Shown: positions 22,668 through 60,123 of the stretch, in pieces
Layout of the letters: each line of letters begins with the position of its first letter
Numbering within the stretch: position 1 is the stretch's first letter
NCBI GenBank assembly: GCA_009779135.1
Contig: WREW01000001.1
Span: 173,498-237,497, forward strand
Source: Alphaproteobacteria bacterium
Lineage (GTDB): Bacteria > Pseudomonadota > Alphaproteobacteria > UBA9219
Length of the DNA: 64,000 nucleotides
Direction of reading: 5' to 3'
The notes under the pieces: model-generated
What the model was told of the DNA's origin: nothing
The model's input: the letters and a program-made list of their open reading frames with translations, nothing else
Database searches by the model: none
Position numbers and translations under genes: made by a program

Positions 22668-24095
22668 ATGTCTGTTGTTGTTCGTTTTCCTCCTTCGCCC
22701 ACGGGGTTTTTACATATCGGCGGGGCGCGCACAGCGCTTTTCAACTGGCTTTACGCCCGCCATATGGGGGGGCGCTTTCTTTTGCGCGTGGAGGATACGG
22801 ATCAGGCGCGCTCAACGCCCGAGTCGGTCGAGGCTATTTTGGACGGCATGCGCTGGCTTGGGTTTAACTGGGACAATGATGATCCGGCGCAAAATAACGG
22901 CAAAAGCTACTATTCGCAGTACGACATGGCCCCAAGACATGTCGAAGTGGCAAAGGAAATGGTGGCGCGCGGTGCGGCCTATTACTGCTATGCAAGCCCC
23001 GAAGAGCTTGAGGCCATGCGCGCCGAACAAAAAGACAAAAGCCTGCCGCAGCGCTATGATGGAAGATGGCGCGAGCGGCCCGCAAGTGAAGCACCCGAAG
23101 GCGTCAACCCCGTTATTCGTCTGAAAGCTCCGCTGGAAGGAGAAACCATTGTCAATGACCTCGTGATCGGCTCGGTGACGGTTCAAAACAGCCAGCTTGA
23201 TGATATGGTGCTGGTGCGCGCGGACGGAACGCCGACCTATATGCTGGCCGTGGTGGTGGACGATCATGATATGGGCGTTACGCATGTGATCCGTGGTGAC
23301 GATCATTTTACGAACACCTTCCGCCAGATTCAGATTTACAAGGCGATGGAATGGGAGATCCCTGCTTTTGCACATCTGCCGCTTATTTTAGGGCCGGATG
23401 GCGCCAAGTTTTCCAAGCGCCACGGCGCGCCGGCTGTGTCCTCTTACCGCGATATGGGCTATTTGCCCGAGGCGATCCGCAACTATCTTTTACGCCTTTG
23501 CTGGTCGCATGGAGATGATGAGATTATCTCAACCCAGCAGGCGATTGCGTGGTTTGATTTTGACGGCATCGGCCACTCGCCCGCGCGCTTTGATTTTGCC
23601 AAGCTTAATCATTTGAACGCGCATTATATCATGCAAAAAGACATTAAAACATTGACGGATCTGGCGCTGCCTTTTGTCGTCAAGCATCTTGGAAAAGAAC
23701 TGACTCCGGCGCAAAAAGAAATCCTGGCCGCAGCCTTGCCGGATATTCAACCGCGCATCCAGCTGCTCAGCGAAATCGGGCCGGCGGTTCAATTTTACTT
23801 TGATCTGATCGAGCCGGACGAAAAAGCCCGCAAAATCTTAACCCGCGAAGCCCAGACCCATTTAAGAGCGCTTGCCGATCAGATCCGACAAAACCCCGAT
23901 TTCTCCGGCGCGATGCTTGAAGATTTATTTCGTGGTTATGCCGAGCAGGAAGACCTCAAACTCGGCGCAGTGGCGCAACCTTTACGCGCTGCGCTGACAG
24001 GCCGCGCAGTCTCTCCGCCCATCTTCGCAATCGCCGCTCTTTTAGGCCGCGATGAAGTTCTGCGGCGCATAGACCTTACCTGCGCACTGGATTAG
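22668..24095 (+). CDS. gltX: glutamate--tRNA ligase
   Basis: HIGH motif (PSPTGFLHIGGARTALFN) and KMSKS-like KFSKR. 475 aa. Confidence 0.9.
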   Translation: MSVVVRFPPSPTGFLHIGGARTALFNWLYARHMGGRFLLRVEDTDQARSTPESVEAILDGMRWLGFNWDNDDPAQNNGKSYYSQYDMAPRHVEVAKEMVARGAAYYCYASPEELEAMRAEQKDKSLPQRYDGRWRERPASEAPEGVNPVIRLKAPLEGETIVNDLVIGSVTVQNSQLDDMVLVRADGTPTYMLAVVVDDHDMGVTHVIRGDDHFTNTFRQIQIYKAMEWEIPAFAHLPLILGPDGAKFSKRHGAPAVSSYRDMGYLPEAIRNYLLRLCWSHGDDEIISTQQAIAWFDFDGIGHSPARFDFAKLNHLNAHYIMQKDIKTLTDLALPFVVKHLGKELTPAQKEILAAALPDIQPRIQLLSEIGPAVQFYFDLIEPDEKARKILTREAQTHLRALADQIRQNPDFSGAMLEDLFRGYAEQEDLKLGAVAQPLRAALTGRAVSPPIFAIAALLGRDEVLRRIDLTCALD

Positions 24096-24210
24096 GAGGA
24101 AATGGCGTCCCCTAATAGACGCAATTCGAAAAGACTATAGACAAAATGCGTTGAATCTCAACAAGATTCGGCCATTGTCATTGAGATAAACGGGTAAAAG
24201 CTTCGATTCT

Positions 24211-24273
24211 GGTTTTCAGGGCATTTGGGTCATTCTCAAACCCTTCCGGCATAGGGGGTTTTTGCCCCAAAGC
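24211..24273. repeat. degenerate duplicate of the thrC 3' end (direct repeat flanking inserted islet)
   Basis: ggttttcagggcatttgggtcattctcaaacccttccggcatagggggtttttgccccaaagc aligns, with a 39-bp internal deletion, to 25426-25527 inside the thrC C-terminal coding region. Confidence 0.55.
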
Positions 24274-24279
24274 AGAAGG

Positions 24280-24897
24280 TCATATGATAATCACATCACC
24301 ATCCTGCATGGTTTTGTAAATAATGCCGTGCTGCTTGCAATATTCAACGGCTTTGTCCGCAAGCTCCGTTTCAAAATGATCTGATTGGTAATGGGGGATA
24401 GGCATGAAATCCAACAGACCGACACCTTCATGAATAATGGAGCCATAATTATAGGGATCCGCCTCAGGCACATCCATGACAGAAATGCCATCCAGCTTGT
24501 CCGCCAACACGCAAATGCCCGCGCTATATCCGGCGTATAAAAAATCTCTGTTATTCATCTTGTTTTTTAAAAGTTCATCAAATCCGCTTAATGCCATGGC
24601 CCTGCGCAAAACATAAGTATTGCCGCCGGAAACATAACAGGCACTAAAGGCCTTTAAATAATCTTCAAGTTCTTTTTGTTTGCCGAAATAATCCTTTAAA
24701 TCGAGCTTGACGGCATCAAAGCCGATATTGGTTAAATCATTGATATTTGCAAGGATTCTTTCTTCTATGCCGTCCGGATCATCTCTGTAGTCGATCGCGT
24801 TCGGGATGACGGCAATTTTATTATTATGCGCATGTTGCCATGCTTTTAAATAATCAACCCTGTCCCCCAACTTAAATGATGATAAATACAGCTTCAT
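24280..24897 (-). CDS. peptidase S51 (dipeptidase E / PepE-like) family protein
   Basis: Size and sequence character fit PepE; the nucleophile Ser context is YAGYSAGIC. AT-rich codon usage. Confidence 0.65.
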   Translation of the reverse strand: MKLYLSSFKLGDRVDYLKAWQHAHNNKIAVIPNAIDYRDDPDGIEERILANINDLTNIGFDAVKLDLKDYFGKQKELEDYLKAFSACYVSGGNTYVLRRAMALSGFDELLKNKMNNRDFLYAGYSAGICVLADKLDGISVMDVPEADPYNYGSIIHEGVGLLDFMPIPHYQSDHFETELADKAVEYCKQHGIIYKTMQDGDVIII

Positions 24898-24941
24898 TTT
24901 TAGCTCCTTTTCAGCTCCTTTTTCTTCCTATAGACCTATTA

Positions 24942-25241
24942 TTAGCCCAAGTTGAGTTGTTTTTTCACAATGGCGTTGAGTTCGGCTATATCAACCGCTC
25001 GAACGGCTTGGCCGAGAGTCTCTTGTGTGATGACGATGGGGCCTTGCGGCTGTTTCACCGAGTGACCTTTTTCTTTGTGAGTCAGAACATAGGGCTTTTT
25101 CGGTGAGGGGGTTCGTTTTTTAGCTGTGATTCCAAACTCAGCAGGGTCACAGACGCGAATGGTCTCACCACAGAACTCCTCAAAAATCGGGATACCCTTA
25201 CATTCTGTAGAGTTTTGATCGAGTCTTTCTTGTTTCGTCAT
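24942..25241 (-). CDS. small hypothetical protein (islet)
   Basis: ORF in the AT-rich islet. Probable start MTKQERLDQ at 25241; the ORF runs to 25307. Confidence 0.4.
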   Translation of the reverse strand: MTKQERLDQNSTECKGIPIFEEFCGETIRVCDPAEFGITAKKRTPSPKKPYVLTHKEKGHSVKQPQGPIVITQETLGQAVRAVDIAELNAIVKKQLNLG

Positions 25242-28031: not shown

Positions 28032-29390
28032 TTAGTTTGTCAAACTGCGAATAGGGGCCGGAACACGACCGCCACGCGCAATCAAGGCGTTTGGTCTAAA
28101 CGGGTTGACAGCCATGACGGGCGCACTTCCGAGCAAACCGCCATATTCAATCAAATCACCCACTTTCTTGCCCGGTACAGGAATGATGCGAACGGCAGTC
28201 GTTTTGTTGTTAATCATGCCGATGGCCGATTCATCGGCAATGATAGCTGAAAGCGTTTCTGCTGTGGTATCGCCCGGCACCGCGATCATGTCGAGACCGA
28301 CAGAGCAAACGCTTGTCATAGCCAGAAGCATTTCGATATTCAGGCTTCCACGCTTGACAGCAGCGATCATGCCCGCGTCTTCACTTACAGGAATAAAGGC
28401 CCCACTCAAACCGCCAACACGTTCGGCAGCCATAACACCACCTTTTTTGACGCAATCATTAAGGAGAGCCAGAGCAAAAACCGTTCCCGCTCCACCACAG
28501 CTTTCTACCCCGATTTCTTCAAGAATATGCGCAACGCTGTCGCCTATGGCCGGAGTAGGCGCTAAAGACAAGTCAATAATGCCACATTGTGCGCCAAGCC
28601 TTGCGGCTGCTTCCTGTGCCACCAGTTGGCCCACGCGCGTAATTTTGAAGGCTGTGCGCTTGATGGTCTCGGCCACAACATCAATCCCTTTGCCGCGCAC
28701 ATGTTCAAGAGCGCGTTTAACGGCACCAGGGCCGCTTACACCTACATTGATCGTTGTGTCGCTTTCACCTACACCGTGGAAGGCTCCGGCCATAAAGGGA
28801 TTATCGGACGGTGCGTTGCAAAAAACGACCAGCTTGGCACAACCAATCGCGCCGCTATCTTTTGTAAGCTCAGCCGTTTTCTTGATAATACCGCCCATTT
28901 GACACACAAGATCAAAGTTGATTCCAGCTTTGGTGGAACCGATATTGACCGAGGAGCAAACAATCTGCGTTTGGGCCAAGGCTTCGGGTATTGAACGGAT
29001 CAGTTTTTGATCGCCTGCAGTCGTGCCTTTTTCGGCCAGTGCTGAAAACCCACCAATAAAATTGATGCCCAATTCTGTCGCGGCGGCTTGAAGAGCTTTT
29101 GCCATAGGAACGTAATTGTCCGTTTTGCAACTTTCTGCCGCAATGGCTATGGGCGTGACAGCAATGCGTTTGTTGATGATTGGCACACCAAGTTCTGCCT
29201 CAATTTCCTCACCAGTCCGAACAAGGTTTTTTGCCTTTGTTGTAATCTTGTCATAAATATTCTGGCAAAAGGCCCTTGGATTAGGATGGGCACAATCACG
29301 CAAACTGATGCCCATTGTGATGGTGCGAACGTCCAGCGTGTCTTCTGTAATCATTTTTTGTGTTTCAAAAATCTCTTGAATAGTAAGCAT
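28032..29390 (-). CDS. UPF0210 / DUF711 (PFL-like) family protein
   Basis: [30 protein letters not shown]. 452 aa. Adjacent to its usual ACT-domain partner. Confidence 0.7.
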
Positions 29391-29417
29391 GTTTAATAAC
29401 TCCCGTTTTTATGGATT

Positions 29418-29714
29418 TCACGTCATCGGATCAAGATCCGTCGGGACGATACGGTGCATAGCAAGAAACAAGCATGGTCTTAATGCCTTGATTTCAAGCC
29501 CTTGATTTTCACCTTCTTCCTTCATGCACTCTTGCAGATCCTTCAGATTTGTAATTTCTGAGCCGAAATCAGCAATCGCCGCGAAACACGCGCGGCCACC
29601 GATATTTTCTTGTCCATTACAAACAAACGCCACTTTTTTTCTATTTAGAACGTCATAAACGCGGTTGCAGACGTCAGAACCTTCTTTGCCAAATGCCATT
29701 ATGATAGCTTTCAT
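29418..29714 (-). CDS. ACT-domain protein UPF0237
   Basis: MKAIIMAFGKEG start with SD aaggaaag. About 98 aa. FRAMHRI C-terminal motif. Confidence 0.7.
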   Translation of the reverse strand: MKAIIMAFGKEGSDVCNRVYDVLNRKKVAFVCNGQENIGGRACFAAIADFGSEITNLKDLQECMKEEGENQGLEIKALRPCLFLAMHRIVPTDLDPMT

Positions 29715-29855
29715 TTTTTCTTTCCTTGTCAAAATAGGATTATTTCAGTGTTATTCATTTTCTTTTTCGGTTTCTTGTTCAACGAATCTTTGTATATGTG
29801 AGTGCTATATGCGCGTAGTCTTTGATGCCTCTTTTTGGTTAACAAGCGCAAAAAT

Positions 29856-30548
29856 CTATCCTGCTGATATGTTGACTTTCTCATTGGGGGCAAGGTAACT
29901 AGGTGTAGCCTTTTCCCACATAGAGAAAAACTGGCGGCGGAAGCCCTCGGAAACGGATCTCGATTTCACAACCGTTATTTTCGGCCATATCTCTTTGTCG
30001 GTCGGGATAAGCGCGTATTTATTGCCATAGACATAAAAGGAAACTGCATCAATATACTGTTTCGAGATGGTTCGGAATTGTAAACGTGGGCTTGAAAGCT
30101 GAGGCTCGCCCACTTCCGTCAAAAGGCATTTGATAGAAAGATCATCGTTATATTTAAGCAAGGCCTCAAGTTTTGGACAATCACCAGCACCGCATATTTT
30201 TTCTAACTCCTCAAGGCAATTCGCTACAATGATAAGCTCATGACGCGCTTGACGGGTTGTTTCCTTGATGTCATCCAGTAATTGATCCGTACTACCCACG
30301 CCATGAAAGACAGCAATATCCTCAAGTTTCCGCCGAACACCGTCAGGATCAATAAACTCAAGCCCAGCGTCTTCCATCGCCTGATAAATCAAACGAGTTG
30401 TTTCACTGCGCGGGGAAATATGACCAAGTTCCAGCTTTCGAATGGTGGCAATAGAAAGCTGTGCTGCATAAGCCAATTCTTCTTGCGACCAATCAAGAAG
30501 CGCCCGCGCGGCCTTGATTTGTCTTGCACTAAGAGGGCGTATTATCAT
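29856..30548 (-). CDS. XRE-family HTH protein with conserved C-terminal domain of unknown function (paralog 1)
   Basis: Cro/C1-type HTH (LSARQIKAARALLDWSQEELAYAAQLSIATIRKLELG), EDAGLEF...GVRR linker, C-terminal YGNKYAL segment. The ORF extends to 30626. Confidence 0.6.
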   Translation of the reverse strand: MIIRPLSARQIKAARALLDWSQEELAYAAQLSIATIRKLELGHISPRSETTRLIYQAMEDAGLEFIDPDGVRRKLEDIAVFHGVGSTDQLLDDIKETTRQARHELIIVANCLEELEKICGAGDCPKLEALLKYNDDLSIKCLLTEVGEPQLSSPRLQFRTISKQYIDAVSFYVYGNKYALIPTDKEIWPKITVVKSRSVSEGFRRQFFSMWEKATPSYLAPNEKVNISAG

Positions 30549-30795
30549 TGGCTGCTCCGATACTCTTCCATCAAATCCCCCGTTTTTCTTTTTTCGATGG
30601 TTCAGGATGCGCATAGCAAGCCACATAAAAAAAAGAGCTTTTTTTGACCTTTTCGGGCTTGTTTCTTGACCCTTAGGATCAATACAGGGGGATTTTGACC
30701 TTAAAGGCCATTTTCTTGGCCTTTTCTGCTATCCCAACAAACAAAAAGCCATGCGTGTTGGTATGGCTTGGAATATTTTTGTTTTCTTGTGTGTT

Positions 30796-31485
30796 CTAGG
30801 CGCGGATTTGTTGTTCTGTAGCGCGCGGCTGAGGCTGGATAAACGGCACAGCAAGTTCCCAGATCAGATTAAACTTGTTCTTACATTGAAGCGCCAGATC
30901 AAGGTCGCTGAATATAACAAACGTAAAATGCTCCCCAGACTTTGCCCGTAAGATAATATGGCTGTTGTTGTAAATGAAATGAGACCCCTCACTAAGATAA
31001 GTATTAGAGGTCAGCCGTGCCGTGCAGTTTTCCAGCACAGCCACCCGTTCGTGAGACCGCGCAAAAAGGCACCTCATATCAGCAAAAAGAAGGAGTTTTT
31101 GTAAGGCTTGCCAAGAACTTTTCTTGTCCATGCCAAAAGTACGCAAAAGAAGCTCTGGGTCGTCAAAAACAGCTAAAATCTCGCCTTTGTTCCTTTTGGC
31201 GTTTTGGAGCAAAAACTCAAAAAACGCTTGGCGGCTATCCGCGCCTTGAATAACTTTAAGGTCAGGTCTAAGGCGGCGAACGCCTTCGTTCTCGGTAAAC
31301 TCAAACCCAGCCCCCTCAATGGCCTTGCACAAAAGTTCCAGCGTTTTGCCGCGCGGGGAAAGGATGCCTTGCTCAAGGTTGTGAATAGTACCGCGTGAAA
31401 TGCCTGAGGCGTCCGCCAACTCCTCGCGCGTCCAGCCGAGCATCGCTCTGGCTCCTTTAATCTGATCCGGTGTGACAAATTGCAT
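30796..31485 (-). CDS. XRE-family HTH protein with conserved C-terminal domain (paralog 2)
   Basis: Same architecture: TPDQIKGARAMLGWTREELA...EGAGFEF...GVRR. Confidence 0.65.
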   Translation of the reverse strand: MQFVTPDQIKGARAMLGWTREELADASGISRGTIHNLEQGILSPRGKTLELLCKAIEGAGFEFTENEGVRRLRPDLKVIQGADSRQAFFEFLLQNAKRNKGEILAVFDDPELLLRTFGMDKKSSWQALQKLLLFADMRCLFARSHERVAVLENCTARLTSNTYLSEGSHFIYNNSHIILRAKSGEHFTFVIFSDLDLALQCKNKFNLIWELAVPFIQPQPRATEQQIRA

Positions 31486-31497
31486 AATGAGACTCGA

Positions 31498-31848
31498 TCA
31501 GTTAACGAGGTGCGTAAAATCAACTTCCATCAGGAAACAAACAGCATCTTCATAATGTCCGGAAGGAATATCTTTCACGTCTTTGACGTTAAACATTGCC
31601 GTGACAATGGCCTCCACTGTGGCCTCATCGACTTTCTCAAAAAGGGAAACATAAGATATGATGTTCTCAATCGCTTGAAGCTCCCTTTCGTTAAGGGGCG
31701 CGGCGTCCGCCTCGCGCAGGGCCTTGAGGCCTTGAGCGAGAAGCCGCAGGATGGCAGGCGGTGGGTTGTCAAAGCCAAGCTGCTTTATGGCCTGAGTGTA
31801 GAGTTCGTCAGCGGAAGGGCGTGATTTAAGGTCAGCGGGATCCATCAT
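31498..31848 (-). CDS. hypothetical protein
   Basis: 116-aa ORF immediately upstream of paralog 2 in the same orientation. Confidence 0.4.
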   Translation of the reverse strand: MMDPADLKSRPSADELYTQAIKQLGFDNPPPAILRLLAQGLKALREADAAPLNERELQAIENIISYVSLFEKVDEATVEAIVTAMFNVKDVKDIPSGHYEDAVCFLMEVDFTHLVN

Positions 31849-31860
31849 GGGGTATCTCTC

Positions 31861-32043
31861 TTAGGCAGAAGTGGCTTGGGTAAGGGGGGCGCTGTTATCG
31901 TTGGTTTCTTGGATGAAACGCGCCCAACGGTCTTCGAGGGAACGGGGTTCTTGGCAGATATGGTTGTAACGCTCCCACGTTTCCACAATTTGCCGGATCA
32001 AGGTTTCGCTGTGCTTCTTTGTGACTGTATCGAAATCAAGCAT
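31861..32043 (-). CDS. small hypothetical protein
   Basis: 60-aa ORF, first in an apparent three-gene minus-strand operon. Confidence 0.3.
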   Translation of the reverse strand: MLDFDTVTKKHSETLIRQIVETWERYNHICQEPRSLEDRWARFIQETNDNSAPLTQATSA

Positions 32044-32379
32044 TATGTCCCCTCACTTCAAAATTATTTAAGCAAGGCCGTCATGGCCGCCTCATTTTGG
32101 TAGTGTAATAGATATTGCCATAGAAGACAAGATAAAAGTTTATAATAAAGATTGTTATAATTACTCTAAAAATAACTTAAACCATTACAGAATGCATGAT
32201 CCCAACCAAAGCCGCTTAATTTAGCCTTTAGTGGTTAATGGTTATTTACCAAAAATAGGTAAGAATAGACCAAAAAAAGGTAGAATCTTGCCAATTAGCC
32301 CTTTTCTTTACTTGTGAAACTATTTCTGATAAGATAATTCAAAATTATTCTGAAAGATAGACCAACGTCAGGAAAGACC

Positions 32380-33021
32380 ATGCCTACAGGAAAACAAGTC
32401 AGAGCTGCCAGAGTTCTTGCTGGATGGGATGCAGAGCATCTTGCGAAGAAAACGAAGCTCACGGCCGTAACCATTCTTAAAATTGAACGCGAAGAAGCTA
32501 CGGCACGCCCAGCTACCATGGAAAAAATTATAAAAGCCTTTTTCGAAAACGGCATTGAGTTTCTTGATAATGAAGGCCTGCGCCGCAGGAATGACATGCT
32601 TAGGGTTTTTGAGGGAAAAACACCGTACCTTGACGTTTTGGATGATGTTTTTCTAACACTGCGGGAGACAGGTGGCGAGGTTCTTTTTTCTTTTGTTTGC
32701 AACAAGCTTTCCCCACCAGAAGTTATTGAAAGCCAGATCCGTCTTCGGCGGCTTGGCATTAAGTTTCGTAGTCTCATTGAAGAAGGGGACGCCTATTGCC
32801 TATACCCTCTTAACGAGTACCGTGCTGTACCCAAGCAGTTTTTTCACCACAACATACTGGTAATATACGGGGACAAGGTCGCTTTATTTCTAAGCAAGGA
32901 CAAGCGGGCGATTATTATCCGTGATAGTGAGTTTGTGGAAACACAGCGCAAAATGTTTGAAATAGCATGGAATAATTATACAGCCCCGACAAAAACAACT
33001 GCCCCTAAGACGTATGGGTAA
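32380..33021 (+). CDS. XRE-family HTH protein with conserved C-terminal domain (paralog 3)
   Basis: GKQVRAARVLAGWDAEHLA...ENGIEFLDNEGLRRR. C-terminal IYGDKVAL segment. Its stop overlaps the CDPS-like start. Confidence 0.65.
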   Translation: MPTGKQVRAARVLAGWDAEHLAKKTKLTAVTILKIEREEATARPATMEKIIKAFFENGIEFLDNEGLRRRNDMLRVFEGKTPYLDVLDDVFLTLRETGGEVLFSFVCNKLSPPEVIESQIRLRRLGIKFRSLIEEGDAYCLYPLNEYRAVPKQFFHHNILVIYGDKVALFLSKDKRAIIIRDSEFVETQRKMFEIAWNNYTAPTKTTAPKTYG

Positions 33022-33739
33022 AACTATGGATTCGTGTCAAGAATATCGTGTCCGCGTGCGAAACAGATCAGACTGGCGAAATTATGCTCGTCTAAGGCTT
33101 CTGATTAGTGTTGGAAAACCGTATCATGAGGGCGAAAAACTCCAAGCTGTTGTTGATTGGATCAACAAAAATCCACACATAACAGAAGTTCAAGTGTGTG
33201 TTGGCGATTTTCTCCAGCGACATAATCTTATTGCCTATGGTGAAGATGAAGAACGCGCTAGTTACATGGCCTTGCTTGCCGGAACTTCATGGATAGAACG
33301 CAACGAATCCATATTATCCGGTTTACAACCTAAATGGTCATTCACACGCTGGACTGATTGGTTCGGGATAGAGGAGTTTTATAGAACCCACGCCGCTATT
33401 TTAAGATTGGAAACTGAAAATCATGCTTTCAAAAAAAGTCTTGATCTGGACGCATCCTCACTGGCGAAAAGGAAAGAACTACGGGGTGAATCCGTCCCCA
33501 AAGATCTTGTTCAGCACTCTTACAACTTCGTCACGGAAGAACTAGCTGTTTTTACCATGCTGAGTCGATGTCTGCCCGCTGCTGAAGTCTATCCCGGAAC
33601 AAGCTTGGAGGCTGTAAAATATTTACACGGAAAAGACCTTCCAGAAATACTTATCCCCTTAAAGACCAGATATATTGTTCGTATTAATTTTGAAAGGATA
33701 AAACTTTCCTCCGATGTCCTTTTGGACGGTGCCGCCTAG
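33014..33739 (+). CDS. cyclodipeptide synthase (CDPS, tRNA-dependent)-like protein
   Basis: 241 aa. LLISVGKPY matches the CDPS catalytic-Ser strand (GISAGNSYF / GVSPGNSFF). VVDWINKNPHITEVQVCVGD matches LLQW...TDVVYVD. FVTEELAVF matches YVLAELPLF. SLEAVKYLHG matches SSVLCYH. Comparisons are to AlbC, YvmC and Rv2275 as I recall them. Confidence 0.5.
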   Translation: MGKTMDSCQEYRVRVRNRSDWRNYARLRLLISVGKPYHEGEKLQAVVDWINKNPHITEVQVCVGDFLQRHNLIAYGEDEERASYMALLAGTSWIERNESILSGLQPKWSFTRWTDWFGIEEFYRTHAAILRLETENHAFKKSLDLDASSLAKRKELRGESVPKDLVQHSYNFVTEELAVFTMLSRCLPAAEVYPGTSLEAVKYLHGKDLPEILIPLKTRYIVRINFERIKLSSDVLLDGAA

Positions 33740-34227
33740 CGCAAATGCCTCATCAGATCGCGCTTTGCTTCAAAGCACACGGCATTTAAGCGAACTTTTG
33801 ACACAACTTGAAGCATGACGAAAAAGTCTTCCGCATCATCCCAATATTGCTTGTTCAAAAAAAACTAACCATTCGTAATTTTCATATTCTTCAAACCACC
33901 AATCACATTCACACCCGGCATCATAGGCTTGTTGCCGAAGATGCGGAGACGCGCGCCGAGGGTGGCGAGCGCATCAAGCATTGGCCTGTCATTGATTATA
34001 AAAATATGCGCCTCAGGCACAGGCGGAATGAAGGTGCTTGGTCGAGCCTCAGGGCTGGCCGTCAGATCATTTCCACAAGCCGCGCTTACCTTTGTGCTGT
34101 TGTTTCGGACGTTCGTGTTGTCGGCGATCATTTAAGATTATCCGGCGAAAACAAGGACATTGCCAATCTTATTGCGGCAAACGGCCAAATCAGCCTAACA
34201 AATAAAGTTCGCAGATCTATCTATGAA

Positions 34228-34303
34228 TGGCGACCCCTACGGGATTCGAACCCGTGTTACCGCCGTGAAAGGGCGATGTCCTAGGCCTCTAGACGAAGGG
34301 GTC
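34228..34303 (-). tRNA. tRNA-Glu (anticodon UUC)
   Basis: Reverse complement GACCCCTTCGTCTAGAGGCCTAGGACATCGCCCTTTCACGGCGGTAACACGGGTTCGAATCCCGTAGGGGTCGCCA. Confidence 0.85.
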
Positions 34304-34451: not shown

Positions 34452-35078
34452 GTGGATCAATCGGCTAAGAACAGCAAAACCCATGCGGTTTGCCTTACCG
34501 CCACGGCTGCGCTGCCGACGCGGTTTGGCGTTTTCAAGGCGCAAAGCTTTATCGGCCAGCATGCGCGGCATGGCGGGCAGGATGTGGTCGTGTTTGCCCT
34601 CAGCATGGGCGAGGTCGCCGATGATTGCATGGTGCGGTTGCACTCGGAATGTTTGACGGGCGATGTGATGGGATCTTTGCGCTGCGATTGCGGCCAGCAG
34701 CTTGCGGCGTCTTTAAACATGATTGCGCAGGAAAAGCGCGGTCTTTTGCTGTATCTTCTGGGCCATGAAGGTCGCGGTATCGGGCTTTCGGACAAACTCA
34801 AAGCCTATGTTTTGCAAGATCAGGGCATGAACACGCTGCAGGCCAATTGCGCACTGGGTCATGCGGGGGACGAGCGCAATTATGACGCCGCGATCGCGGT
34901 GCTGCATGATTTCGGTCTGAAATCCATTCGCCTGCTGACGAACAATCCGGAAAAGATCGAAGCGCTTGAGCTCAGCGGAATCCGCATCACCGCGCGCCTG
35001 CCCTTATGGCTTGAAGAAAATCCTCACAACGCCACATATCTTGAAACAAAGCGCGATCTGATGGGACATTTGCGCTAG
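34452..35078 (+). CDS. ribA: GTP cyclohydrolase II
   Basis: RLHSECLTGDVMGSLRCDCGQQL zinc site, EGRGIGL, RLLTNNP. Closely parallels E. coli RibA. Confidence 0.85.
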   Translation: MDQSAKNSKTHAVCLTATAALPTRFGVFKAQSFIGQHARHGGQDVVVFALSMGEVADDCMVRLHSECLTGDVMGSLRCDCGQQLAASLNMIAQEKRGLLLYLLGHEGRGIGLSDKLKAYVLQDQGMNTLQANCALGHAGDERNYDAAIAVLHDFGLKSIRLLTNNPEKIEALELSGIRITARLPLWLEENPHNATYLETKRDLMGHLR

Positions 35079-57941: not shown

Positions 57942-58009
57942 CGCGTATTTTTATTTTTCTATTGACCTGAAAGCTAAGGCTTTCTAGTTTGGCGTCTTGT
58001 CTTTTCCAA

Positions 58010-58085
58010 GACCTCGTAGCTCAGCTGGTAGAGCATTTGACTTTTAATCAAAGGGTCGCGGGTTCGAATCCCGCCGAGGTCACCA
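58010..58085 (+). tRNA. tRNA-Lys (anticodon UUU)
   Basis: GACCTCGTAGCTCAGCTGGTAGAGCATTTGACTTTTAATCAAAGGGTCGCGGGTTCGAATCCCGCCGAGGTCACCA. Confidence 0.9.
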
Positions 58086-58099
58086 GAGAAGAGCTACGC

Positions 58100-59443
58100 C
58101 TATTCAATATCCAGCAGCCATTTCAATACATTTAGGTGCTGGATTCCGCCGTAGTCGTTATTGTTGGTATCTCGGGTTAGGATAAACTTCGGATGATGGT
58201 CTTTGATTGCTTCGAGTGACGCAAGTTCGCGAGCAAGCGTGGTTTCATCCATCACGCTTTGGGCAACCTGATAATATTCTGTTTTTCCGCCTTCCTTTTG
58301 CGCCACAAAATCTATTTCTATATCGCCGGTTTTGGTTTCTATTTTGCCAACCTCAACCTTATTATATCCACGCCGTAAAAGTTCCAGATACACAATGTTT
58401 TCTAATACATGTCCGGCATCCTTGTTCGGCGCACCGCCAAGCAAATGATAGCGTAACCCCATATCTACAGCATAATATTTAGCTTTCGGGCGAAGCATCT
58501 TTTTCCCAAAGCGCTGAACCTCAGCTTTATAGAACAAGAAACTGTCAAGAAGTGCCTGAAGATATGTTTCAAGCATGGGGGCGTAAAAAGTCTTGCCTGA
58601 TTTCAATTCGTCATTTATCACATTTTTCATGTTATTTATGGATGTTTCGCTCCCTATATTGCTGAACATAAAATTGATAACGCGCGTAAGTTGAGGCAGT
58701 TCTTTTACCCCTTCATGTGTCATGATGTCGCGCGTAAGGATACTGTTGTAGATATTATCAAGGTATTCGCGGATGGCTCCTCCATCCCAACGAGTCTCTA
58801 TAAGCTCAGCTAAACCGCCCTGCAGAGTCATGCCAAAACCCACTGGAAAGGGATTTGGATAGACATAAGTAAGAGCTTCAGGAAACGAGCTGTGTTCAAG
58901 ATAAAATTGAAATATCATATCCCAACCAAGGTGTGGAGTGGGATTCCTATGGATTTTTTTGTAATACGCCTCTCCATATTCCTTAAACGACAAGGGAAAC
59001 ATATGGATTTGAATATACCGCCCGCTAAGGATTTTAGGCAGATTATGGGGTAGAATTTGTGCGTTTGAGCCTGTCACATATAAATCCAGATTATCTCTCA
59101 GGCGCAGACTATTTATAACATCGGCAAAATCGGAAACCAATTGTACCTCATCCAAAAATACATAGACAAGTTTCTCTGCCTTTTCAGCATACTCTTTTAC
59201 AAACTTGTGTAAGGCCATACCGTCCCGAAGCGCCTTATTGTCCAAATTTTCGAGTTTTATGACAAGGATTTGGTCATCTGTTATGCCATTGGATTTAAGC
59301 TTCTCTGTATATATGTCAAACAGAGTAGATTTTCCGCAACGCCGGACGCCCGTTACGATCTTGATAAGATCTGTTTGCTCCGTGTGCCTTTCCAGTTTGG
59401 CAAGGTAGTCGGGGCGTGGGATAAGGGTTTGCATCTTGGTCAT
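58100..59443 (-). CDS. AAA+ ATPase (AAA_14 domain) with C-terminal DUF4143
   Basis: Walker A GVRRCGKST, Walker B VFLDEV. Low-GC codon usage. Immediately downstream of tRNA-Lys. Confidence 0.75.
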   Translation of the reverse strand: MTKMQTLIPRPDYLAKLERHTEQTDLIKIVTGVRRCGKSTLFDIYTEKLKSNGITDDQILVIKLENLDNKALRDGMALHKFVKEYAEKAEKLVYVFLDEVQLVSDFADVINSLRLRDNLDLYVTGSNAQILPHNLPKILSGRYIQIHMFPLSFKEYGEAYYKKIHRNPTPHLGWDMIFQFYLEHSSFPEALTYVYPNPFPVGFGMTLQGGLAELIETRWDGGAIREYLDNIYNSILTRDIMTHEGVKELPQLTRVINFMFSNIGSETSINNMKNVINDELKSGKTFYAPMLETYLQALLDSFLFYKAEVQRFGKKMLRPKAKYYAVDMGLRYHLLGGAPNKDAGHVLENIVYLELLRRGYNKVEVGKIETKTGDIEIDFVAQKEGGKTEYYQVAQSVMDETTLARELASLEAIKDHHPKFILTRDTNNNDYGGIQHLNVLKWLLDIE

Positions 59444-59500
59444 TTGAGTCCCATTTGCTATTTTCTATGATTTTAGCAGATTTTTTGGAACAATCAAGAT

Positions 59501-59557
59501 ATTTCTACGAAAATCGTAGAAAAGAACAGTGTTTTTGCCCCTTTCTACGAAAATCGT
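59501..59557. promoter_or_regulatory. pair of 17-bp direct repeats with internal palindrome (putative operators)
   Basis: TTTCTACGAAAATCGTA occurs at 59501-59517 and again at 59541-59557 (40-bp spacing). Each contains CTACGAaaaTCGTAG. Located between the ATPase start and the phage-like module. Confidence 0.4.
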
Positions 59558-59772
59558 AAAAAACCACCCCAGGGCATCTATTTTTTCAAAGACATAAAGA
59601 AAGACGCCCACCCCACCAGCAAAAAAATCCCAACAAAGTAATTTTTTCCTTGACCTGGCCCCCGCCGCGTGCTATTGACAATACCAAGCGGAGCTATGTC
59701 CGCGTGACCAAAAGGCGTTTCCTCTTTGAGGAACGCCTTTTTTGTTTTGCAAAACAGGAAAGGAAAACCCCT

Positions 59773-60123
59773 ATGTCTTTGAAAGATACTTATATTTCGG
59801 CGCTTGAGACAATCAGCCTTGTCATGCCTGCCGGCAGCGCGCCCAGTGATCCGGTTAATCTTGGCGGCTTGCGCCTTTTTGCCATCGCGCTTTCTTCCGC
59901 TTTTACGGCCTGTTCTTTGACCTTCCAGATGTCGCCGGATGACGGACAAAGCTGGTTTGATCTTTTGGATCAGAACGGGCAGGAAGTCACCGCCACGGCC
60001 CTGCCGTCAAGCTGCGTGGTGCTGGAGCCCAAGCAGTTTGCTTGTCTGAAACATATACGCATCCGCTGCGGCACGGCGCAGGTGCAAGGCAGCACGATGA
60101 TGCTGGTGGCAAGGGCGGTGTAG
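59773..60123 (+). CDS. hypothetical protein (first gene of phage-tail-like module)
   Basis: SD aggaaagg before the ATG at 59773. 116 aa. Confidence 0.45.
   Translation: MSLKDTYISALETISLVMPAGSAPSDPVNLGGLRLFAIALSSAFTACSLTFQMSPDDGQSWFDLLDQNGQEVTATALPSSCVVLEPKQFACLKHIRIRCGTAQVQGSTMMLVARAV

Follow-up and report, generated by a model that had tools for sequence, protein, structure and literature searches.

The window, a stretch of 64,000 nucleotides from the genome of an uncultured alphaproteobacterium (GenBank assembly GCA_009779135.1, contig WREW01000001.1, positions 173,498 to 237,497), contains three genes, par1, par2 and par3, that are annotated publicly as plain helix-turn-helix (HTH) proteins (FWF24_ locus tags, proteins MCL2468793-98). 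We found that their products belong to a large transcription factor family in which an XRE-type (Cro/C1) HTH is very probably fused to a C-terminal domain of the TrmB type, a phospholipase D (PLD) fold without its catalytic motif. The three proteins would act as one-component regulators, each with an HTH, a beta-hairpin and a tail of the kind found in TrmB and TrmBL2. We suggest that par3, the s60-s116-par2 operon and the paired candidate operators in the spacer between them form a divergently transcribed cassette. The one exchangeable part of this cassette would be the enzyme gene behind the par3-type regulator, and in the window its output would be a cyclodipeptide synthase (CDPS).

The HTH, the tail and the family

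An earlier note on this DNA had described par1, par2 and par3 as Cro/C1 HTH proteins with a common C-terminal domain, and we confirmed both points. All three are present in the list of open reading frames (ORFs) and scored above the gathering cut-off (23 bits) of Pfam HTH_3 (PF01381), with 28.6 bits for par1, 41.7 for par2 and 26.3 for par3. The tails are approximately 150 amino acids (aa) long. Compared on its own by BLASTP, the tail of par1 matched the tails of par2 (E=1e-6) and par3 (E=3e-6); the similarity between the par2 and par3 tails was not significant. A hidden Markov model of the tail made from par1-type homologues only scored par2 at 6e-16 and par3 at 9e-7 (nominal database of 1e6), so the homologous tail is real in all three proteins. 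The description of the regulators as modular also stood. The (I/V)YG(N/D)K motif, which had been placed near the end of the domain, is followed by ~50 more residues, including an invariant F..W helix.

We modelled par1 with AlphaFold2, using an alignment of 51 family sequences. The model (mean predicted local distance difference test score, or pLDDT, of 90.8; predicted template modelling score, or pTM, of 0.74) has a five-helix HTH (residues 8-60), a beta-hairpin (63-73) that corresponds to the 'AGxEF...EGVRR' segment, and an alpha/beta domain (77-213). Past the final helix of the PLD-like domain the chain runs on for another ~15 residues, and a sugar-binding subdomain is absent. In Foldseek searches of the PDB, the tail matched the archaeal chromatin protein TrmBL2 (5bpd, E 7e-7) and the TrmB effector domain (2f5t, E 1.5e-4), and also single-domain nucleases of the PLD fold (Nuc, 1byr; NucT; Zucchini; PLD3). 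The best matches to the HTH were restriction-modification controller proteins (C.Kpn2I, TM 0.84-0.86, 32% identity).

Profile searches also connected the tail to TrmB. The tail profile matched proteins bearing the TrmB winged helix (PF01978) with E values of 1e-21 to 5e-31, and six of the seven multi-repeat proteins scanned (375-1,061 aa; 2-6, mostly 5-6, tail repeats) start with this winged helix. Because the profile finds proteins with a TrmB winged helix, the tail is homologous to the C-terminal domain of the TrmB family. Judged from these matches, the XRE head has taken the place of the TrmB head. The tail profile found nothing at E<=10 among all PDB sequences, so the link to TrmB rests on the fold search together with the matches to TrmB-winged-helix proteins. 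In par1-3, Pfam at E<=0.1 detected HTH families only, and neither PF01978 nor Regulator_TrmB (PF11495). The TrmB-headed multi-repeat proteins are P0207, P0214, P0244, P0286, P0296 and P0318, with their repeats in tandem; P0232 consists of two complete XRE-tail units fused head-to-tail.

Among 118 family members, the tail has no conserved histidine in any column and no HKD motif. A single column is rich in histidine (54%), and it is not part of an HKD context. Conservation is seen at G83, D93, R159, Y174, A179, F207 and W211. With the HKD motif absent, the tail is therefore non-catalytic. The earlier note had called the domain uncharacterised. It is indeed unnamed in Pfam, NCBIfam and PADLOC, all three of which match the HTH alone, but it does have relatives, in the dead-PLD fold of TrmB and TrmBL2. 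TrmB-type C-terminal domains are known from archaeal sugar regulators and chromatin proteins, and here such a domain appears to be re-used in bacteria behind a Cro/C1 HTH. The match provides a fold and a name for the tail of a large unannotated transcription factor family.

A search of 1.84 billion representative proteins with the tail profile returned 1,667 clusters (50% identity) with E<=1e-3, of which 624 reached E<=1e-10. A set specific to this island, as had been proposed, is not compatible with these numbers. Nearly all family proteins are 210-240 aa long, with the tail at residues ~73-220, and at least 535 stretches were confirmed when species-representative genomes were scanned. The relatives come from metagenome-assembled genomes (MAGs) labelled Alphaproteobacteria, Rhodospirillaceae, Micavibrio or 'Bdellovibrionales', and also from the cultured Micavibrio aeruginosavorus HCB189. 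Genomes often contain numerous copies. In Micavibrio-like bacteria, for which hardly any regulatory genetics exists, these proteins may be one of the main families of regulators.

A neighbour-joining tree of the 118 full-length members had three deep clades, with par1, par2 and par3 each in a different one. In clade A (par3), an enzyme gene follows the regulator at -31 to +60 nt, and par3 falls in a CDPS-coupled sub-clade with the regulators of loci L003 and L038. In clade B (par2), s60 and/or s116 immediately precede 9 of the 11 members and have the same orientation. Clade C (par1) contains stand-alone genes and tandem arrays. The three deep clades, together with pairwise full-length identities of 27-29% among par1, par2 and par3, rule out a recent local triplication, and with it the threefold local expansion that had been suggested from the sequence. 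We conclude that the three genes represent three old subfamilies with different genomic roles.

Several other family loci were seen. In M. aeruginosavorus HCB189 (L059, 10004-11687), an A-type regulator gene is followed by a Methyltransf_33 gene after a 13-nt gap, and this pair is an experimentally tractable entry to the family. In the closest relative, MAG STD2_238, at least 19 copies are spread over three contigs; at L013 (1-8600) in this MAG, 11 family matches lie back to back in 8.6 kb with no enzyme genes among them, and L023 has a comparable array of six family genes. Tandem arrays of transcription factor genes without targets are unusual. Short HTH-only family matches occur at L013 and L024 too, and at L001 (6198-6470) a 90-aa HTH-only paralogue overlaps the end of a par2-like gene. 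A tblastn search of a plasmid collection with par1 gave no full-length relative. The plasmid matches covered only the first 70-120 residues, mostly residues 1-75, and were in annotated HTH-domain or transcriptional-regulator genes, chiefly on rhizobial plasmids, where there are also genes that encode the 75-residue head by itself.

The cassette and its enzyme slot

The cassette was present in two forms, together at more than 20 loci, and recurs in Micavibrio-like and other Alphaproteobacteria. The long form, with the order XRE-A(-), spacer, s60(+), s116(+), XRE-B(+), was found in the window (Table 1) and at L001/L004, L005, L019, L025, L029-L033 and L085; some copies are without s60 or s116, or end at a contig edge. 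The short form, s116(-) followed by XRE(+), was found at L003, L007 (twice), L040 (twice), L042, L044, L047, L050, L054, L063 and L083. In the window, both small ORFs are immediately upstream of par2 on the same strand, with gaps of 12 nt between s60 and s116 and between s116 and par2. These gaps and the recurrence of the arrangement in other genomes bear out the operon that the earlier note had proposed. At L029 and L031, which are from one MAG, s60, s116 and XRE-B are nearly identical despite different enzymes, and the s60-s116-XRE-B module therefore appears to be generic. We consider it likely that the A and B regulators, s60, s116 and the paired operators are a functional unit.

Table 1. 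Features of the window discussed in the text
Feature	Coordinates	Strand	Description
par1	29856..30548	-	XRE-HTH + TrmB-like tail, subfamily C, stand-alone type; 230 aa
Terminator-like hairpin 3' of par2	30746..30769		Pattern scan; consensus match only
par2	30796..31485	-	XRE-HTH + TrmB-like tail, subfamily B; 229 aa; final gene of s60-s116-XRE operon
s116	31498..31848	-	Small partner protein, 116 aa; conserved C-terminal domain of ~65 aa
s60	31861..32043	-	Small partner protein, 60 aa; first gene of operon; alignment of 10 homologues
Divergent control region	32044..32379		AT-rich, 336 bp; between s60 operon and par3-CDPS
Operator candidate 1	32247..32261		Palindrome TACCAAAAATAGGTA; exact TACC-N7-GGTA
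Operator candidate 2	32268..32282		GACCAAAAAAAGGTA; one mismatch; 21 bp from site 1
par3	32380..33021	+	XRE-HTH + TrmB-like tail, subfamily A; 213 aa
Cyclodipeptide synthase	33014..33739	+	XYP-type relatives; phmmer to solved CDPSs
Inverted copy of ribA 3' end	33736..33775	-	33/36 nt identical; directly after CDPS stop codon
tRNA-Glu(UUC)	34228..34303	-	Flanking landmark; ARAGORN, Rfam

The 3' end of par3 overlaps the start of the CDPS-like gene by 8 nt, a coupling that had been noticed before. In phmmer searches the product of the CDPS-like gene matched solved CDPSs (9i5m and 5mlq, E 5e-15; 5ocd, 2e-12; 5mlp, 8e-7), and the segment LLISVGKPYHEGEKL aligns with LLVSVGADYHEGEKL. The scores were below the curated cut-offs (20.9 bits vs 27 for Pfam PF16715; 37.2 bits vs 45 for TIGR04539), and the protein is in a divergent alphaproteobacterial clade of 48 clusters. 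On sequence grounds, the gene is a genuine relative of the solved XYP-type CDPSs.

Linkage between the regulator and the CDPS was consistent. In seven of seven CDPS loci examined (the window, L003, L038, L082, L083 and L084 among them), an XRE-tail gene is immediately upstream of the CDPS gene, and at all of them but L038 there are small ORFs in the divergent orientation. Homologues elsewhere thus adjoin both CDPS genes and the small ORFs. The neighbourhood is conserved across genomes; its absence, which the earlier note had named as part of what would speak against its reading, was not what we saw. A second CDPS cassette is present at L003 (7355-8732), between flagellar genes and xerD/DUF484, with small ORFs of 55 and 116 aa and a CDPS 79% identical to that of the window. 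L003 carries the FWF24_ prefix of the window MAG, and this second cassette is therefore very probably in the same genome.

CDPS is one of several kinds of partner. Counting coupled genes of at least 200 aa, we found a downstream partner for ~50 of ~120 family genes, and in many pairs the end of the regulator gene overlaps the start of the enzyme gene by 4-31 nt. Pfam classified 54 coupled neighbours as Methyltransf_33 (EgtD-like; 21), other methyltransferases dependent on S-adenosylmethionine (~6), GNAT acetyltransferases (4), LPG_synthase_C-like proteins (an aminoacyl-tRNA-dependent transferase fold; 3), CDPSs (3), 2-hydroxyacid dehydrogenases (2), formyltransferase-like proteins (2), an AsnB-like amidotransferase (1) and an Orn/Arg decarboxylase (1). 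On this classification, every coupled partner is a single enzyme whose substrates are amino acids or aminoacyl-tRNAs. At L001, which is from the closest relative and syntenic with the window, s60-s116-XRE-B is kept and a Methyltransf_33 gene follows the A-type regulator in place of the CDPS. Such a cassette could be the means by which orphan CDPSs and EgtD-like methyltransferases are regulated.

The first small protein, s60, combines a conserved N-terminal part with a variable tail, and its ER and LExRW motifs are invariant. This pattern, together with partner enzyme classes that resemble tailoring enzymes, is what might be expected of a precursor peptide that is modified by the variable enzyme, as in systems for ribosomally synthesized and post-translationally modified peptides. 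We see next to no chance of this. The substrates of CDPSs are aminoacyl-tRNAs and not peptides; s60 and the enzyme gene are divergently transcribed; and there are cassettes without s60. A role as precursor was rejected because nearly identical s60 proteins occur with a Methyltransf_33 enzyme (L029) and with a GNAT (L031) in the same MAG. The s60 profile found nothing among PDB sequences. In 6 of 10 homologues the s60 tail ends in -AA (LAA, IAA, SAA, RAA or AAA), and the window copy ends in -TSA. We speculate that the -AA ends resemble the ssrA-type C-terminal degrons recognized by ClpXP.

The second small protein, s116, has a variable N-terminal half and a conserved, predicted helical C-terminal region of ~65 aa. 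The helical prediction comes from a low-confidence AlphaFold2 model (alignment of three sequences, pLDDT 51) that is otherwise unusable. We found 21 s116 homologues adjoining XRE-tail genes. Scanned as single sequences, these gave weak matches to phrog_5825 (in 7) and phrog_6521 (in 6), to several anti-repressor (Ant) PHROGs and to Pfam ORF6C (in 3), with best E values of 3e-5 to 5e-2. We take the similarity of s116 to anti-repressors as a lead and not as an assignment. A word-indexed protein search gave three relatives of s116 and a metagenome scan gave one locus. Comparison of the s116 profile with PDB sequences gave chance-level matches only.

The HTH resembles restriction-modification controller proteins and the genes are in a low-GC island, and both would fit a role in anti-phage defence, which the earlier note had raised. 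However, no nuclease, NTPase or other typical defence effector is present, and we hold this role to be hardly tenable. It was rejected on the PADLOC results: matches were confined to the HTH, and the CDPS, s60 and s116 had no meaningful match.

The spacer contains two candidate operators (Table 1). Site 1 is the sole exact TACC-N7-GGTA in the 64-kb window (0.12 expected), and the centre of the palindrome is A/T-rich. There were 18 exact sites in 1.23 Mb of fetched loci, 11 of them in cassette spacers. The same palindrome is present in equivalent spacers elsewhere (10 more sites in 9 other loci, plus L084 and L085). Spacer sites lie mostly 75-125 bp (overall range 2-204 bp) before the start of XRE-A and, where s60 was called, 167-216 bp before s60. 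Pairs of sites are exactly 21 bp apart in 6 of 12 cassettes. This spacing amounts to two helical turns, as would be expected if two dimers bound cooperatively. Clades B and C vary less in the recognition helix ((S/T/A)T(I/V)R(N/K)) than clade A does, a weak hint that a B-type protein could be the one that reads the conserved palindrome. An Rfam scan found tRNA-Glu only, and no family in the spacer.

Tail-enzyme co-variation and the proposed switch

We found that the tail of A-type regulators co-varies with the enzyme and that the HTH does not. Identities were calculated separately for the HTH (residues 5-72) and the tail (residues 76-215). par3 and the L003 regulator, both coupled to a CDPS, are 58% identical in the HTH and 76% identical in the tail. 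In contrast, par3 and the L033 regulator, which has an AsnB-like partner, are 79% identical in the HTH and 22% in the tail. Similarly, the regulators of L003 (CDPS) and L031 (GNAT) are 84% identical in the HTH and 22% in the tail. Among 666 pairs of typed A-type regulators, median HTH identity was 41.8% for pairs with the same enzyme and 42.6% for pairs with different enzymes. Median tail identity was 35-55% for same-enzyme pairs and 27-33% for different-enzyme pairs, in every bin of HTH identity. All pairs with HTH identity >=70% and tail identity <=30% (4/4) differ in enzyme, and most pairs with HTH identity <=40% and tail identity >=40% (17/22) have the same enzyme. Thus, the regulators are mosaics in which the tail and the enzyme stay together.

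Based on these results, we suggest that regulator dimers bind the two operators cooperatively via their TrmBL2-like tails, and that binding determines which of the two operons, that of the enzyme or s60-s116-XRE-B, prevails and by how much, as in a two-regulator switch. The tail of the A-type regulator would be the input module, matched to the partner enzyme. It might sense the amino-acid-derived substrate or product of the enzyme (here a cyclodipeptide), or the enzyme itself, and the matching would give feedback or autoinduction. s116 and s60 would modulate the regulators. We give an even chance to the explanation as a whole, a two-regulator switch with a tail matched to the enzyme or its small molecule, and propose the specific sensing mechanism more tentatively. 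If the tail does sense the product of the enzyme, the pairs would be a new family of small-molecule receptors and synthases. The predicted unit is compact and portable, with two regulators, two small proteins, a paired operator and an exchangeable slot for a single enzyme, and it could be tested in E. coli.

Some points weigh against this explanation. The co-variation could arise partly because the 3' half of the regulator gene and the gene after it are physically linked. TrmB and TrmBL2 have the C-terminal domain in common, TrmB binds its sugar with the help of an additional subdomain that TrmBL2 is without, and TrmBL2 is tetrameric (PMC4877046). The sugar-binding subdomain is absent here as well, and the fold alone therefore favours oligomerisation over ligand sensing. 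The anti-repressor-like matches of s116 have E values of 1e-2 to 3e-5. Finally, a promoter and terminator scan was not above background.

The overlap of many regulator genes with the start of the enzyme gene, with the regulator gene first, would also fit a toxin-antitoxin-like or addiction pair. The tail would neutralise a harmful enzyme and the HTH would autoregulate the pair; the harm would come from consumption or modification of aminoacyl-tRNA or amino acids. Co-variation of tail and enzyme agrees with this, as does the association of some cassettes with mobile elements, and the CDPS, LPG_synthase_C and GNAT partners either act on aminoacyl-tRNA or are GNATs. However, the commonest partner is an EgtD-like methyltransferase, the others include AsnB-like, dehydrogenase and decarboxylase enzymes, and none belongs to a known toxin family. 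In addition, the partners are metabolic-type enzymes of 225-600 aa, and the PADLOC and NCBIfam matches are at the level of the HTH only. We judge a pair of this kind to be very unlikely.

The presence of two divergent HTH paralogues around paired palindromes brings in another explanation, that the cassette is the immunity or control region of a decayed mobile element, with XRE-A comparable to CI and s60/s116/XRE-B comparable to Cro plus Ant. The tail would then merely oligomerise, and the enzyme would be cargo (a moron) that is co-transcribed with the repressor and has no sensing link to it. The weak Ant and ORF6C matches of s116 point in this direction, as do the integrase, AlpA, Toprim/DUF7146, ArdC and relaxase genes beside the cassettes at L084, L082 and L001, and the G+C dip, neighbouring tRNA-Glu and duplicated ribA end in the window. 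It is also consistent with the equivalent domain of TrmBL2, which tetramerises and has no known ligand (PMC4877046).

Other results are difficult to reconcile with a mobile-element origin, which we regard as rather unlikely. Integrase, replication and transfer genes are absent near the cassettes of the window, L003 and L083. A BFVD search found no viral protein that pairs an XRE HTH with a PLD-like tail, s116 had no tblastn match in 50,697 phage records, and the plasmid search gave no full-length match. Many members are in chromosomal arrays or in regulator-methyltransferase pairs that are conserved across Micavibrio genomes. The tail also follows the type of enzyme independently of the HTH.

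The two-regulator switch with an enzyme-matched tail might also be part of lineage-specific signalling, in which each A-type regulator and its enzyme would be a receptor-synthase pair with the TrmB-like tail as the receptor. The molecule would be derived from amino acids, for example a cyclodipeptide, a betaine, or an N-acyl or aminoacyl compound. The many paralogues without an enzyme, among them those in arrays with as many as 11 members, would be 'solo' receptors, s60-s116-XRE-B would be a shared controller, and shuffling of HTHs and tails would evolve receptor specificity. We think this unlikely. If true, it would be a new system of chemical communication or prey sensing in Micavibrio-like, possibly predatory, Alphaproteobacteria.

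Neighbouring genes and comparison with known systems

par1 would be the stand-alone member of the set. Its ORF can be extended to 30626; the length in Table 1 is counted from the ATG chosen in the earlier note. The candidate hairpin sits between par1 and the s60-s116-par2 operon. Directly downstream of par1 (window 28032-29732, minus strand) are genes for an ACT-domain protein (104 aa) and a DUF711/UPF0210 protein (452 aa). Orthologues of par1, with 80% and 72% identity, are upstream of an ACT-DUF711 pair in two related MAGs (L001/L004 and L005). The trio is kept in L001, and the shorter contig L002 has the same protein; at L005, where the par1 orthologue alone was checked, the trio is probably present also. 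Given this conservation, par1 may control the ACT-DUF711 genes.

The G+C content is 0.40-0.44 at 29-34 kb compared to ~0.53 in the flanks. The inverted copy of the ribA 3' end is the right-hand edge of this low-GC segment. Intact ribA (GTP cyclohydrolase II) is at 34452-35078, with the copied 3' end at 35040-35078 (plus strand), so that the two copies flank tRNA-Glu and ribA. The duplication is possibly the scar of an insertion or inversion at the low-GC edge. Between the ribA fragment and tRNA-Glu is an 88-aa ORF (33865-34131, minus strand) with no Pfam match, which may not be a gene. Further dips in G+C (0.43-0.45) occur at 24001-25000 and at 58001-60000, the latter beside tRNA-Lys (58010-58085), and may be other islands.

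One comparison is with TrmB and TrmBL2 of the Thermococcales (5bpd, 2f5t and 3qph-type). The likeness is in the PLD-like C-terminal fold without an HKD motif and, for TrmBL2, in a protein that ends after this domain with no sugar-binding subdomain. The family here differs in having a Cro/C1 HTH and beta-hairpin in place of the TrmB winged helix and dimerisation helix, and in being bacterial and restricted to Alphaproteobacteria.

The HTH itself is structurally like that of the C proteins of restriction-modification systems (C.Kpn2I, C.Esp1396I; PADLOC Control_protein, E 1e-7 to 4e-8). C protein genes are also just upstream of a coupled enzyme gene and use paired palindromic operators. In contrast to the proteins described here, which have 213-230 aa with a 150-aa tail and are coupled to small-molecule enzymes, C proteins consist of an HTH only (~80 aa) and control endonucleases.

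The divergent HTH paralogues, the shared operator region and the faint Ant/ORF6C similarity of one small protein recall the CI/Cro/anti-repressor switches of phages, and the cassette is found in some integrative elements. However, the proteins have neither a peptidase S24 or other phage-repressor tail nor viral homologues, many copies are in chromosomes and outside prophages, and the ORF list of the window has no phage genes near the cassette. The resemblance to LuxI/LuxR pairs and LuxR solos is a functional analogy only: a small-molecule enzyme with a dedicated regulator, and many paralogues without an enzyme. There is no homology, and secretion and sensing of a product would be taken from that analogy alone.

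In general architecture, the family resembles XRE regulators with an N-terminal HTH and a C-terminal input or oligomerisation domain, such as XRE-cupin (PsdR), MmyB-like XRE-PAS and RRNPP XRE-TPR proteins. These also adjoin metabolic or biosynthetic genes that they putatively control, and their families are expanded within lineages. The differences are the PLD/TrmB-like tail and the dedicated partners s60 and s116; in the literature searched, we found no description of an XRE plus TrmB/PLD-like architecture, of s60 or s116 proteins, or of such cassettes. XRE proteins that act as one-component regulators and carry a sensor tail are well known as a kind, and what is unusual here is the modular cassette, the domain shuffling and the large enzyme-less arrays.

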